Positions 1-29,849 of a stretch of 30,513 nucleotides of DNA are shown here, in pieces. The position numbers were made by a program, and so were the translations under genes. Origin of the DNA: a virus (Duplodnaviria > Heunggongvirae > Uroviricota > Caudoviricetes); IMG/VR virus record IMGVR_UViG_2778261535_000002; one strand, given 5' to 3'. Positions within the stretch are counted from its first letter, which is position 1, and every line of letters begins with the position of its first letter. The notes below the pieces were generated by a model, which saw only the letters and a program-made list of their open reading frames with translations, was not told the origin of the DNA and made no database searches.

Positions 1-270
1 GATGTGGATCACGGCACCATTCGCCAGCGGTTCATTAAGACGGGCTGATAATTCTGTTTCACCGGCATCATGCCCGGCAATGCGTACCTGATACCAGCCG
101 TCGCTCAGTTTCTGACGAAACGCCGGGAGCTGTGTGGCCAGTGCCCGGATGGCTTCAGCCCCCGTTTTCACACGAAGGTCGATGCGGCGGCCAAATCGTT
201 GTAAATCCCCGTAAAGGCAGATGCGTGCCATGCCCGGTGACGCCAGAGGGAGTGTGTGCGTCGCTGCCAT
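1..270 (-). CDS. I: tail tip assembly protein I, partial (start at 270, runs off the window start)
   Basis: Reverse-complement translation from the ATG at 268-270 reads MAATHTLPLASPGMARICLYGDLQRFGRRIDLRVKTGAEA, recalled as the lambda I N-terminus; sits downstream of K in tail gene order. Confidence 0.8.
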   Translation of the reverse strand, partial: MAATHTLPLASPGMARICLYGDLQRFGRRIDLRVKTGAEAIRALATQLPAFRQKLSDGWYQVRIAGHDAGETELSARLNEPLANGAVIHI

Positions 271-25841: not shown

Positions 25842-26558
<717 letters not shown>

Positions 26559-26615
26559 TAGGAAGTAAGTTTTATGTTGACGGCACAGTCAACTTGGCAT
26601 AGATTAATTAAACCA

Positions 26616-26676
26616 AGCCCAGCCCCGTTCGCAGACAATTGTTAATATCTGCATAACGGCTCTGGGCTATTTTTTT
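26616..26676 (+). terminator. long hairpin plus T7 run between cI and the downstream NYN gene
   Basis: AGCCCAG ... (nested CCGTT/AACGG and GCAGA/TCTGC pairs) ... CTGGGCT followed by ATTTTTTT. Confidence 0.55.
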
Positions 26677-26685
26677 GGGACTCTT

Positions 26686-27543
26686 ATGAAGAAAGCAGCA
26701 ATTTTAATTGATGCGGGTTTTTTCATGCAGCGTGTTCATGCTACGCATCGTAAACACTTCGCCGAGCATGAACTGACTGCGCAATGCATAATGAAAGTAA
26801 TATGGTCAATGGTTCTTTCCCATCTTAATGGAAAACGTCAATCACAAGAACGTAGGGAACCGCTTGAGCTTTATAGAATTTACTTCTATGACTGTCCACC
26901 ACTCGACATTCAAACACGCCTTCCACTTCCTGAGCCTGGCAATAAGACGCCTGGTCGCAAGAATTTCAAACTCGAAAAATCATATATTCTGAGAACGGAG
27001 CTGCATGAAGAGTTAAGAAAAACTCGAAAAACAGCCTTAAGATTAGGGAATCTTGTTGATAATAAGCGATGGCAACTAACTACATTCTCCCTTGATGCTC
27101 TGATGAAAGGAACGAAAAAATGGGATGAACTGACAAATGATGATTTTTACTATGACATCAAACAAAAACAAGTTGATATCAAGCTAGGGATGGATATCAC
27201 GACTTTAGCTTATGAAAAACTTGTTGATGTAATTGTCCTTGTTGCTGGGGACTCAGACTTTGTGCCTGCCGCCAAACACGCCAGAATTAAAGGTATTGAT
27301 TTTATTCTTGATCCACTAAGACAGAATGTTACCCCATCACTGTCAGAGCACATTGATGGAGTTCAGTCATACAGCTTGATATCAGGACTTGCCGATGCTT
27401 TACATGTTGAGCCAGACCCGGCACCTGACTGGTGGGAAGATCGAAAAAAAGGCAAGCCTAGAGGAAAAAACAATAGCGGTAAACGCAGGTATGGAAACAC
27501 TCAAGCTGAGTCTGCAAAGAAACATCAAAGAAATAAACGATAA
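26686..27543 (+). CDS. NYN/PIN-like domain protein (predicted nuclease) occupying the rexA-rexB slot
   Basis: 285 aa ORF; N-terminal AAILIDAGFF and later VDVIVLVAGDSDFVPAAKHARIKGIDFIL fit the NYN/LabA-like pattern with conserved acidic residues; Lys/Arg-rich C-terminal tail; unlike recalled RexA or RexB. Confidence 0.6.
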   Translation: MKKAAILIDAGFFMQRVHATHRKHFAEHELTAQCIMKVIWSMVLSHLNGKRQSQERREPLELYRIYFYDCPPLDIQTRLPLPEPGNKTPGRKNFKLEKSYILRTELHEELRKTRKTALRLGNLVDNKRWQLTTFSLDALMKGTKKWDELTNDDFYYDIKQKQVDIKLGMDITTLAYEKLVDVIVLVAGDSDFVPAAKHARIKGIDFILDPLRQNVTPSLSEHIDGVQSYSLISGLADALHVEPDPAPDWWEDRKKGKPRGKNNSGKRRYGNTQAESAKKHQRNKR

Positions 27544-27552
27544 TCCCATCAA

Positions 27553-27579
27553 CCCGGCCACCGAGCCGGGTTTTCTTTG
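27553..27579 (+). terminator. intrinsic terminator downstream of the NYN gene
   Basis: CCCGGC-CACCGA-GCCGGG followed by TTTTCTTTG. Confidence 0.65.
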
Positions 27580-27732
27580 CCTCACGATCGCCCCACCTAA
27601 AAACACATAACCAATTGTATTTATTTTAAAATTAATAGGTGCAACTCACTAAACAACGCAATTCTGATCTCTCGATCACCTCCCAAGCCACACAACCCTG
27701 CAAAAAATAAATCTATATAAAAAACATACAGA

Positions 27733-27795
27733 TAACCATCTGCGGTGATAAATTATCTCTGGCGGTGTTGACACAAATACCACTAGCGGTGATAC
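27733..27795 (+). promoter_or_regulatory. OL: left operator OL3-OL2-OL1 with pL
   Basis: AACCATCTGCGGTGATA (27733..27749), TATCTCTGGCGGTGTTG (27753..27769), TACCACTAGCGGTGATA (27777..27793); -35 TTGACA and -10 GATACT. Confidence 0.85.
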
Positions 27796-27834
27796 TAAAC
27801 ACACCAGCAGGACGCACTAACCCACATGAAGGTG

Positions 27835-28348: not shown

Positions 28349-28903
28349 TTACTTAGATATTGGCCTTGGCTTTATCTCAATATTATATGGATCATAGCTG
28401 GCAACTAATTCAGTCCAGTAAATATCCTCAATAGGGAATAATATATGCTTCCCATTCCATCGGGAAAAAGTTTTGTTCAACACACCAAGCTCAATCAACT
28501 CACTAATGTATGGGAATTGTTTTGATGTAACCACATACTTCCTGCCTTCATTAAGGGCTGCGCACAAAACCATAGATTGCTCTTCTGTAAGGTTTTGAAT
28601 TACTGATCGCACTTTATCGTTTTGCATCTTAATGCGTTTTCTTAGCTTAAATCGCTTATATCTGGCGCTGGCAATAGCTGATAATCGATGCACATTAATT
28701 GCTAGCGAAAATGCAAGAGCAAAGACGAAAACATGCCACACATGAGGAATACCGATTCTCTCATTAACATATTCAGGCCAGTTATCTGGGCTTAAAAGCA
28801 GAAGTCCAACCCAGATAACGATCATATACATGGTTCTCTCCAGAGGTTCATTACTGAACACTCGTCCGAGAATAACGAGTGGATCCATTTCTATACTCAT
28901 CAA
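28349..28903 (-). CDS. sieB: superinfection exclusion protein SieB
   Basis: 184 aa ORF on the opposite strand between N and ral, as in lambda; hydrophobic N-terminal region. Confidence 0.75.
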   Translation of the reverse strand: MMSIEMDPLVILGRVFSNEPLERTMYMIVIWVGLLLLSPDNWPEYVNERIGIPHVWHVFVFALAFSLAINVHRLSAIASARYKRFKLRKRIKMQNDKVRSVIQNLTEEQSMVLCAALNEGRKYVVTSKQFPYISELIELGVLNKTFSRWNGKHILFPIEDIYWTELVASYDPYNIEIKPRPISK

Positions 28904-29027: not shown

Positions 29028-29114
29028 ATGGAAGAAGAATTTGAAGAGTTCGAAGAGCATCCTCAGGATGTGATGGAACAATACCAGGACTATCCGTATG
29101 ACTACGACTATTGA
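29028..29114 (+). CDS. small acidic ORF (lambda orf28 position)
   Basis: 28-codon ORF MEEEFEEFEEHPQDVMEQYQDYPYDYDY upstream of and overlapping the ral start; below the ORF-track size cutoff. Confidence 0.4.
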   Translation: MEEEFEEFEEHPQDVMEQYQDYPYDYDY

Positions 29115-29298
29115 TAAAAATCAATGGTGTGGACAATTCAAGCGATGCAATGGATGCAAGCTGCAATCGGAATGCATGGTTAAGCCTGAAGAAATGTTTC
29201 CTGTAATGGAAGATGGGAAATATGTCGATAAATGGGCAATACGAACGACGGCAATGATTGCCAGAGAACTTGGTAAACAGAACAACAAAGCTGCCTGA
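29098..29298 (+). CDS. ral: restriction alleviation protein Ral
   Basis: 66 aa ORF starting MTTTIDKNQWCGQFKRCNGCKLQSECMVKPEEMF, recalled lambda Ral. Confidence 0.85.
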   Translation: MTTTIDKNQWCGQFKRCNGCKLQSECMVKPEEMFPVMEDGKYVDKWAIRTTAMIARELGKQNNKAA

Positions 29299-29480: not shown

Positions 29481-29849
29481 ATGTCAAACATCAAAAAATA
29501 CATCATTGATTACGACTGGAAAGCATCAATAGAAATTGAAATCGACCATGACGTAATGACAGAGGAAAAACTTTACCAGATTAATAATTTCTGGTCAGAC
29601 TCTGAATACCGACTCAATAAACACGGCTCTGTATTAAATGCTGTATTAATCATGCTGGCGCAACATGCTCTGCTTATAGCAATTTCAAGCGACTTAAATG
29701 CATATGGTGTTGTGTGTGAGTTCGACTGGAATGATGGAAATGGTCAGGAAGGATGGCCTCCAATGGATGGTAGCGAAGGAATAAGAATTACCGATATCGA
29801 TACATCAGGAATATTTGATCCAGATGATATGACTATCAAAGCCGCCTGA
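29481..29849 (+). CDS. ea10: Ea10 (putative single-stranded-DNA-binding protein)
   Basis: 122 aa ORF, same length and position as lambda Ea10. Confidence 0.8.
   Translation: MSNIKKYIIDYDWKASIEIEIDHDVMTEEKLYQINNFWSDSEYRLNKHGSVLNAVLIMLAQHALLIAISSDLNAYGVVCEFDWNDGNGQEGWPPMDGSEGIRITDIDTSGIFDPDDMTIKAA

Follow-up and report, generated by a model that had tools for sequence, protein, structure and literature searches.

An NYN-domain protein gene and its covarying leader hairpin stand in place of rexA-rexB in a lambda-like phage

The stretch of DNA analysed here (30,513 nucleotides at its full length, called the window; IMG/VR record IMGVR_UViG_2778261535_000002, a virus of the Caudoviricetes) carries a gene for a 285-residue protein of the NYN domain family between the repressor gene cI and the OL/pL region. 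This gene lies in a cassette that has replaced rexA-rexB of phage lambda exactly, and its product has the motifs and the predicted fold of NYN domains. Promoter, hairpin, U-run and reading frame form a single conserved unit, with covariation in the hairpin, which recurs in the lysogeny modules of prophages. With confidence that is about evenly divided, we propose that the cassette is an RNase module expressed in lysogens, throttled and possibly also neutralised by its own leader RNA, with a role in exclusion or abortive infection.

Exchange of rexA-rexB for the NYN cassette

Escherichia phage ev099 (NC_049953, genus Radostvirus) matches the region at 100% identity, and the orientation of the region in the window is opposite to that of the lambda map. 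The order on the + strand is cI (25845-26558), the NYN open reading frame (ORF; 26686-27543), OL/pL and N, with cro, cII, O and P on the - strand upstream of cI. When compared with lambda by blastn, the window is homologous at 97% identity up to position 26562, stopping 4 nt beyond the cI stop codon, and homology restarts at 27551 with 94% identity. The 988 bp in between (26563-27550, + strand) stand in place of lambda 37222-35827, which is rexA-rexB, essentially to the base, and the inserted cassette thereby lies between cI and the terminator before OL/pL. The first-pass annotation of the window had placed the gene in the rexAB slot, and alignment with lambda makes this placement exact. It had also called the product unrelated to the Rex proteins, and indeed no Rex family is found among the Pfam, PADLOC and NCBIfam hits of the NYN protein. 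Such an exact substitution of rexAB by an NYN cassette appears to be undescribed in the searchable literature.

The upstream neighbour is a cI repressor gene of the lambda immunity type (25845-26558, + strand), as identified from the ORF list and from the 97% DNA identity to the lambda cI region; Peptidase_S24 and HTH_3 domains are found in a protein of another locus (L018) that is identical to the window cI. On the other side, the NYN gene is followed by an intrinsic terminator (27551-27581, + strand; terminator scan and fold), made up of a hairpin with an 8-bp GC-rich stem at 27551-27572 and then a T-rich tail, which in lambda comes directly after rexB. Since lambda homology resumes at 27551, this terminator is part of the phage backbone and lies outside the insert.

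These borders change the picture of the gene as a moron insulated by two terminators. There is a terminator after the ORF, as had been noted, but it is shared with lambda; and the hairpin before the ORF is a leader or attenuator inherited together with the gene, as described below. Of the features by which a moron may be recognised, the cassette has a promoter of its own, predicted and conserved, and an exact replacement polymorphism relative to lambda, whereas its 3′ terminator is shared with lambda and its 5′ hairpin is the leader. Base composition was considered as a mark of foreign origin and set aside, as the GC content of the cassette is only slightly lower than that of its flanks (0.38-0.42 versus 0.44-0.50), a difference too small to decide.

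The NYN protein

The ORF (26686-27543, + strand, ATG start; YP_009909946.1 of phage ev099) encodes both of the strings that had led to its description as NYN/LabA-like, AAILIDAGFF and VLVAGDSDFVP. This description is borne out by profile searches and by structure prediction. The Pfam NYN model PF01936 matches residues 158-205 with 36.8 bits (gathering cut-off 24.2; E=6.8e-9), and NCBIfam TIGR00288 (NYN) gives a partial match over residues 100-207, far under its equivalog cut-off. The predicted fold is a soluble, PIN-like alpha/beta fold which, by fold comparison, is closest to solved NYN domains, the top structural matches including the MARF1 NYN domain (5yaa) and the Vibrio LabA-like protein VPA0982 (2qip). 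Only fold comparison succeeded in this respect: a sequence search of the PDB, with the protein or with a profile of 46 sequences, returned no usable relative. Just 140-152 residues align, the approximately 100 extra residues forming family-specific insertions at about 70-97 and 121-160; because these insertions split the NYN domain, the Pfam model covers no more than residues 158-205. The window protein thus differs from other NYN nucleases (PF01936, LabA-like) in its inserted residues and its lack of a sequence match to solved structures, and also in that it stands alone, is encoded in prophages and has a leader RNA dedicated to it.

Residues invariant among 46 homologues (42-86% identity) include D9, D69, Q160, K161, V163, D164, K166, G168, D170, G188, D189, D191 and F192. 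The LabA-type NYN signatures IDxG, QKxVDxKLxxD and GDSDF are all present in the window protein. The first contains Asp9 (LIDAG; codon at 26710-26712, + strand), which lies where strand 1 ends and is predicted to be catalytic and to bind metal. The second is QKQVDIKLGMD (residues 160-170; 27163-27195, + strand), the signature helix with Asp164 and Asp170, and the third is GDSDF (residues 188-192; 27247-27261, + strand) with Asp189 and Asp191; both of these lie within the Pfam match. Profile, fold and conserved acidic residues all identify the protein as a member of the NYN domain family, an assignment that is already present in RefSeq ('NYN domain-containing protein').

The NYN relatives MARF1, N4BP1, PRORP and YacP/Rae1 lead one to expect a metal-dependent endoribonuclease, and this is the activity that we infer for the window protein. 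It could alternatively be a catalytically inactive, RNA-binding regulator with an NYN fold, as has been discussed for LabA-like proteins, for which the leader would be a feedback binding site. No activity has been shown for this family of prophage NYN proteins, and one of the top structural matches, VPA0982, is of unknown function; however, D9, D164, D170, D189 and D191 are invariant in the 46 homologues, as they would be in an active metal-dependent nuclease, and we consider an inactive regulator very improbable.

The Lys/Arg-rich C-terminal tail pointed out in the first-pass annotation is there (residues 253-285; 27442-27540, + strand) and is predicted to be disordered (pLDDT 52-54), but it is not a feature of the family, since Pseudomonas homologues have an acidic tail or none.

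The family is large. With E<=1e-5, 7034 homologue clusters are found in the protein collection, and at least 575 stretches in the viral contig collection have matches, in phages of Proteobacteria, Firmicutes and Bacteroidota type. Where homologues are named, they are called 'NYN domain-containing protein' or 'nuclease'. In PHROGs the whole protein falls into phrog_5783, 'unknown function' (E=1.5e-119).

Two copies on E. coli chromosomes (locus L003, 3128-3985; L002, 4128-4985) have the same sequence as window 26686-27543 (100% identity). PGAP splits these ORFs, although both are intact at 285 codons with no break in the frame, into a 'pseudogene, missing C-terminus' made of the first 118 codons (in one case named PIN domain-containing) and a short 'NYN domain-containing protein'. 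Our guess is that the split stems from the use of a truncated O157:H7 allele as protein evidence.

A conserved promoter and a covarying leader hairpin

Upstream of the ORF and within the cassette, a consensus scan finds a sigma-70-type promoter (26577-26605, + strand; 9/12 matches), with the -35 hexamer TTGACG at 26577-26582, a 17-nt spacer and the -10 hexamer TAGATT at 26600-26605. Transcription is predicted to start at about 26611-26613, 3-5 nt ahead of a three-tier hairpin (26616-26668, + strand; from folding and covariation). From its base upwards, the hairpin has a helix of 7 bp, a 2x2 internal loop, a second helix of 5 bp, a 1x2 internal loop, a third helix of 5 bp and a 12-nt loop. Directly past it comes a U-run (T7; 26670-26676, + strand), 9 nt ahead of the ATG. 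The centroid structure has a folding energy of -25 kcal/mol, with z = -2.2 relative to shuffles, and the consensus terminator scan missed the hairpin because of its 12-nt loop and its internal loops.

Leaders were surveyed by reading the 150 nt upstream of the start codon in 79 viral loci with NYN homologues, in annotated phages and in bacterial loci. The leader accompanies every NYN homologue examined, irrespective of the upstream gene, and the T-run is retained in every leader, whether from Proteobacteria, Firmicutes or Bacteroidota-type contigs. Every proteobacterial locus has the same layout of a promoter-like pair, a three-tier hairpin, a T-run and an ATG. The pair TTGAC[AGT]-16..18-TAnnnT is present in 33 of the 34 distinct proteobacterial leaders, the hairpin begins about 10 nt past TAnnnT, the distance from the -10 hexamer to the T-run is fixed at 60-69 nt, and the ATG usually follows about 8-15 nt after the T-run.

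It is on covariation that the case for this predicted hairpin rests. In an alignment of 13 distinct hairpins (A4), 96.4% of the cells pair, and both sides have changed in 12 of the 17 pairs; when the 3′ partners are slid by 1-3 columns as a control, pairing falls to 26-45%. Compensatory changes include GCAGA/TCTGC to GTAGA/TCTAC, and CCCAG/CTGGG to CCTAG/CTAGG or CTCAG/CTGAG, and in an AT-rich group (loci L058-L072) the middle helix has been exchanged wholly. Conservation extends to the positions of both internal loops, the 12-nt length of the loop and its core, TTTA[AG]. Judged from these alignments, such conservation of internal loops, loop length and loop core exceeds the needs of a generic terminator.

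A covariance model built from A4 (R1) gives exactly one + strand match per proteobacterial NYN locus, at 63-84 bits and ending just before the start codon, while the - strand scores about 25 bits or less; in the window the match is 26612-26677. The strand asymmetry, the G-U pairs and the U-run together point to an RNA element on the strand of the NYN mRNA. Hairpin and U-run form a predicted attenuator resembling an intrinsic terminator, at which transcripts in E. coli would end as an RNA of about 65 nt (approximately 26612-26677).

Second copies of the hairpin, as possible targets in trans, are absent from the 30.5-kb window and from about 800 kb of related loci, except in one Stx2a phage, where two leader copies result from a duplication around an insertion sequence (IS). 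A search of the window against Rfam returned no family for the leader, and RF03535, of which more below, had no match at E<=10. Tandem Repeats Finder (TRF) found no tandem repeats over 26400-27800, the leader being a single hairpin unit. The leader RNA of proteobacterial NYN genes appears to be undescribed in the searchable literature.

The -35 hexamer is overlapped by a palindrome, GTTGAC-N6-GTCAAC (26576-26593, an inverted repeat without strand), that is conserved across lineages. Of 34 distinct leaders, 26 have an inverted repeat with the -35 hexamer at 4/5 matches or better, where chance alone would give 13.5%. Ten of these repeats are perfect, among them those of cassettes from E. coli and P. 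syringae with NYN proteins of about 46% identity. The palindrome is kept in E. coli, Pseudomonas and other lineages, with a spacer of 6 to 9 nt among the perfect repeats. It might serve as an operator or form a small hairpin in transcripts that read through from cI; the variation in spacing is easier to reconcile with a small hairpin, of RNA or DNA, than with a rigid operator for a dimer.

The first-pass annotation had seen the hairpin and T-run between cI and the ORF, and these are present, but they turn out to be a conserved leader of NYN genes behind its own promoter. We therefore rejected the hairpin as a terminator of cI: it travels with the NYN gene, and a conserved promoter stands between the upstream gene and the hairpin. 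Its place downstream of the cassette promoter makes it a leader or attenuator RNA, one that has been co-inherited with the NYN gene across phyla. A T-run comes after each of the two hairpins, and pRM transcripts leaving cI would meet the first of them, as one would expect if the upstream hairpin ended cI, the downstream one closed the unit, and the ORF were a generic moron between unrelated terminators. Yet the hairpin is found with the NYN gene behind different repressors, behind a DUF3024 gene, at integrase-side ends and behind a chromosomal ABC transporter; together with the intervening promoter and the lambda origin of the downstream terminator, this leaves the two-terminator arrangement with hardly any credibility.

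Genomic context and distribution

CI/LexA-type repressors (Peptidase_S24/HTH) make up 27 of the 48 distinct upstream neighbours in the viral loci, and many of them are only 15-30% identical to lambda CI. Downstream neighbours of NYN genes include N antiterminators and integrases. In Proteus phage Brookers the gene is in the same slot after the repressor, in Streptococcus phage Javan84 it lies between an XRE regulator and the integrase, and in Burkholderia phage phiE202 and in Pseudomonas and Halomonas prophages it is at the integrase end. A solitary chromosomal copy is found in Proteus beside glmS. Among the neighbours, which comprise repressors, N, integrases, DUF3024 proteins and others, there is no conserved protein partner, antitoxin or sensor.

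In Moraxella phage Mcat4 (L005, 4270-4470), matches to isrK (61.9 bits) and to C4 antisense RNA (71.3 bits) lie directly downstream of the NYN gene. The C4 antisense element, which belongs to P1/P7-type immunity, places the NYN gene beside an immunity module there too. The Mcat4 record puts the gene between the terminase and coat genes.

The cassette is 99.6% identical in about 48 Stx2a-converting phages, where it stands behind a different repressor and a DUF3024 gene. In these phages the DUF3024 gene (Pfam, E=2.4e-31) lies between the repressor and the NYN cassette, as in Stx2_EH0505 (L009, 4658-4999 and 8237-8691). Stx2_EH0505 also has, beyond an IS, a second leader copy and part of the repressor gene. 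The cassette of the Stx2a phages still carries the last approximately 19 nt of a lambda-type cI, which gives a hint of where the cassette came from.

Among 5426 complete E. coli genomes, 275 have the leader and 79 have the 3′ half of the gene. In O157:H7 strain EC4115 (L107, 3501-5246) and in a further locus (L078), a cryptic prophage at thrW/proA has a cI identical to that of the window and a complete leader, and in the O157:H7 cryptic prophage IS1203 or a deletion truncates the NYN gene to about 118-127 codons. The excess of leaders over genes in E. coli is at least partly, and probably mostly, due to this thrW cryptic prophage of O157:H7 with its IS1203. A literature search for a small RNA (sRNA) of enterohaemorrhagic E. 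coli at the cryptic-prophage copy returned nothing relevant.

Leaders in other phyla and the small RNA TEG147

A hairpin with a T-run directly before the ORF is also found in homologues of 35-44% identity, the loci being those of Moraxella phage Mcat4, Burkholderia phage phiE202, Streptococcus phage Javan84, a Dorea phage, a Proteus chromosome and Bacteroidota-type viral contigs. The Bacteroidota-type leaders covary in their own way (4 of 15 pairs are compensatory), and an internal loop is conserved among them.

The leader of Javan84 resembles Rfam family RF03535, TEG147 (class 'Cis-reg'), with 52.6 bits and E=6.5e-8, under the gathering score of 56.1, and that of the Dorea phage scores 36.2 bits. 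Matches to TEG147 occur 20-40 nt ahead of the NYN homologues of Javan84, the Dorea phage, S. borealis and S. intermedius. Sarcin-ricin-type internal loops, one of which concerns us here, are likely protein-binding motifs. Such a loop has been predicted in TEG147 by JAR3D (PMC13085918). In S. aureus HG003, Teg147 itself is counted as a 'bona fide' sRNA, 60 nt long and of unusually high GC content (PMC5826253), and its expression is reported to come from a genomic island (PMC3053349). Its existence as a discrete 60-nt transcript in S. aureus gives experimental support in Staphylococcus to promoter and terminator function of the homologous element.

Like the window leader, TEG147 starts a few nucleotides before a long hairpin with an internal loop (the RF03535 model has 60 positions and begins 4 nt before the stem), continues into a U-run and stands ahead of an NYN gene. 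The two differ in that TEG147 has an AGUA/GAA loop of the sarcin-ricin type, whereas the window leader has two small internal loops and a 12-nt loop. By score, the window leader is not a member of RF03535, yet in position and predicted architecture it is a counterpart of it.

An RNA-first scan, with a pattern derived from TEG147 run over species-representative genomes, showed how this RNA can stand in relation to the gene. In S. borealis it is directly upstream of an intact NYN homologue, in S. intermedius (L098) the homologue behind it is cut off at 110 residues, and in S. schweitzeri (L102, 8127-8230) and S. simulans (L104, 705-800) it precedes what appear to be decayed NYN remnants. Retention of TEG147 ahead of decayed or truncated NYN genes may explain why Teg147 has been treated as a stand-alone sRNA of S. 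aureus. The scan also gave coincidental matches within permease genes, hence not every TEG147-like match is linked to NYN. In Sutterella (L101, 446-490; L105, 142-186), a TEG147-like hairpin and U-run are followed by a membrane protein that is TerC-like by eye only; these hairpins must be orphan copies, or else ordinary terminators that the pattern happens to fit.

No literature linking TEG147 to NYN genes was found, and the pairing of NYN genes with TEG147-type hairpin RNAs across phyla appears to be undescribed in the searchable literature.

A possible leader-controlled exclusion module

A model that brings these observations together would run as follows. The constitutive sigma-70 promoter would start transcription at about 26612, a few bases before the structured hairpin, and most transcripts would terminate at the U-run, giving an RNA of about 65 nt. 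A minority would read through and encode the predicted metal-dependent endoribonuclease of the LabA/MARF1-like NYN type, translated from a weak ribosome-binding site. With few read-through transcripts and a weak ribosome-binding site, the nuclease would be scarce relative to the RNA. As the loops and internal loops are more conserved than a plain terminator would require, the nuclease probably recognises the leader, which could be its inhibitory partner, as in type III toxin-antitoxin (TA) systems, keeping a putative toxicity in check, or its autoregulatory self-substrate. The promoter of its own and the position in the lysogeny region lead us to expect expression in lysogens, where the module may act, in place of RexAB, by RNase-based exclusion or abortive infection of superinfecting phages. 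We favour this role because the interval between cI and N is a known hotspot, holding the abortive-infection systems rexAB and bstA (PMC8585504); on the grounds of genomic context and position, an anti-phage role is probable.

The cassette fills the slot of RexAB precisely, between the stop codon of cI and the terminator ahead of OL/pL, and like RexAB it is presumably expressed in lysogens. The resemblance goes no further, and the window protein is not a RexAB member: RexAB consists of a sensor and a membrane protein and depends on pRM, whereas the cassette has a single predicted soluble protein of nuclease fold, with a predicted promoter and leader of its own. A closer parallel in organisation is BstA-aba of prophage BTP1 and relatives, which is also a single-gene module downstream of diverse repressors with a conserved 5′ non-coding element (PMC8585504). 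However, BstA is absent from the Pfam and PADLOC hits of the NYN protein, and aba acts as DNA (PMC8585504), whereas the evidence for the NYN leader favours RNA. A DNA-level element like aba was accordingly rejected for the leader, on account of its strand-specific score (82 versus 25 bits), its G-U pairs and its U-run.

ToxIN-type loci have a promoter-proximal terminator between the RNA and the toxin ORF, and the NYN cassette is built in a comparable way. Type III TA systems (ToxIN, CptIN, TenpIN; and avcID, an example with an RNA antitoxin, PMC10511110) share with it a single promoter, a non-coding RNA, a terminator-like hairpin with U-run, an ORF for a predicted nucleic-acid enzyme, and a location on mobile elements. 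That RNA and ORF stand under one promoter and are divided by an intrinsic terminator is, for the NYN cassette, predicted from sequence and conservation. The differences are that tandem repeats of the ToxI type are not present in the NYN leader (TRF) and that the enzyme has a predicted NYN/PIN-like fold instead of the ToxN/AbiQ fold. The module is therefore not a member of any described type III TA family, although it shares their transcriptional architecture.

These likenesses raise the question of whether the cassette could be a type III-like addiction module that stabilises a prophage or island by post-segregational killing, phage exclusion being incidental. The same order of promoter, RNA, terminator and nuclease would serve, the cassette is found on many mobile elements, beside integrases and at prophage ends, and some staphylococci keep the RNA where the nuclease gene has decayed, as if an antitoxin had outlived its toxin. 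The lack of repeats and of a ToxN-like fold argues against it, and the truncated genes of E. coli go back mostly to one clonal IS event. Addiction is also hard to tell from the exclusion role that we prefer. All in all we consider it improbable.

A more serious alternative is that the leader is a cis attenuator and 5′ stabiliser only, and that the NYN protein is a housekeeping or regulatory RNase, trimming leaky lytic transcripts or modulating host mRNAs, with no part in toxicity or defence. A hairpin with a U-run suffices as a terminator, autoregulation through the leader is common among RNases (rnc, rne), single chromosomal homologues exist outside prophages (Proteus, at glmS), and validated defence models give no match. 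Even RexA is reported to have a non-defence role in the lambda switch (PMC11077077). On the other hand, the sequence of loop and internal loops is kept over protein identities of 46-58%, beyond the needs of termination, and a sarcin-ricin-type loop is predicted in other lineages (PMC13085918). The gene has been placed repeatedly in accessory slots of prophages, including the swap with rexAB, and it occurs sporadically, with intact copies in 1.4% of complete E. coli genomes, as accessory conflict genes typically do. We regard a purely regulatory RNase as unlikely, though of the explanations other than exclusion it is the one that deserves most attention.

Several points weigh against an exclusion role. 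Covariation in a hairpin with a U-run would also be expected of a simple attenuator, ToxI-type tandem repeats were not found, and some homologues are in ordinary chromosomal positions, such as that next to glmS in Proteus. Neither toxicity nor RNase activity nor phage exclusion has been reported for this family in the searchable literature, and we found no work there on the prophage NYN family in connection with rexAB, lambdoid phages or type III TA. The search of defence catalogues suggested in the first-pass annotation was carried out with PADLOC-DB v2 and assigned the protein to no described defence family, the only matches, weak and partial, being to HEC-09 (2e-4, 46 residues) and to NYN PDLC01154 (1.4e-3, about 45 residues). 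Across PADLOC, Pfam, PHROGs and NCBIfam, nothing emerged beyond the NYN domain and a PHROG of unknown function. HEC-09, a candidate embedded in Hma systems, is the only other tested NYN-domain defence candidate that we found; it too has a MARF1-like NYN domain and has been proposed as a defence RNase, but it differs in having an N-terminal HTH-like domain, and it gave no protection against the phages tested (bioRxiv 10.1101/2024.01.29.577857). The leader with a truncated gene in many E. coli genomes may look like a further point of this kind, but is uninformative, as it reflects mostly one clonal IS1203 event.

A wider proposal is that NYN genes with hairpin leaders form an unrecognised RNA-protein TA or abortive-infection family spanning several phyla, a non-repeat counterpart of type III systems that has been swapped with rexAB and has TEG147 as its Gram-positive RNA. 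A structured RNA built into a terminator would here both hold down the NYN RNase and neutralise it directly. We put this forward tentatively, and with more doubt than belief.

Other genes of the window

Farther along, a 184-codon ORF on the - strand (28349-28903) encodes a homologue of the superinfection-exclusion protein SieB (Pfam PF14163, E=1e-29). At this site the RefSeq record of ev099 has an 88-codon hypothetical ORF on the opposite strand (L001, 5990-6256, equal to window 28389-28655), which is probably a mis-annotation. The genes for the anti-restriction protein Ral (29098-29298; Pfam, E=1.6e-48) and for a DUF2528 protein (29481-29849) lie in the pL operon, which is in this respect of ordinary lambda-like content.

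Implications

If RNase-based exclusion holds true, it would add a widespread defence family, of about 7,000 homologue clusters, that current catalogues have missed, and it would provide a function for TEG147, a small RNA of S. aureus that has been without one since 2010. The slot between cI and N of lambdoid phages would then be a place where mechanistically unrelated exclusion systems (RexAB, BstA and the NYN module) are exchanged for one another. Since many Stx2a-converting phages carry it, the gene may have a bearing on which phages can superinfect Shiga-toxin-producing E. coli. The pairing of a structured terminator RNA with an NYN nuclease provides a simple model of the silencing of a potentially toxic RNase, one that can be tested, and could reveal an RNA shape that this family of NYN nucleases recognises. 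Even if the protein is only a regulated RNase, the leader would be a well-supported new class of cis-regulatory RNA for Proteobacteria.

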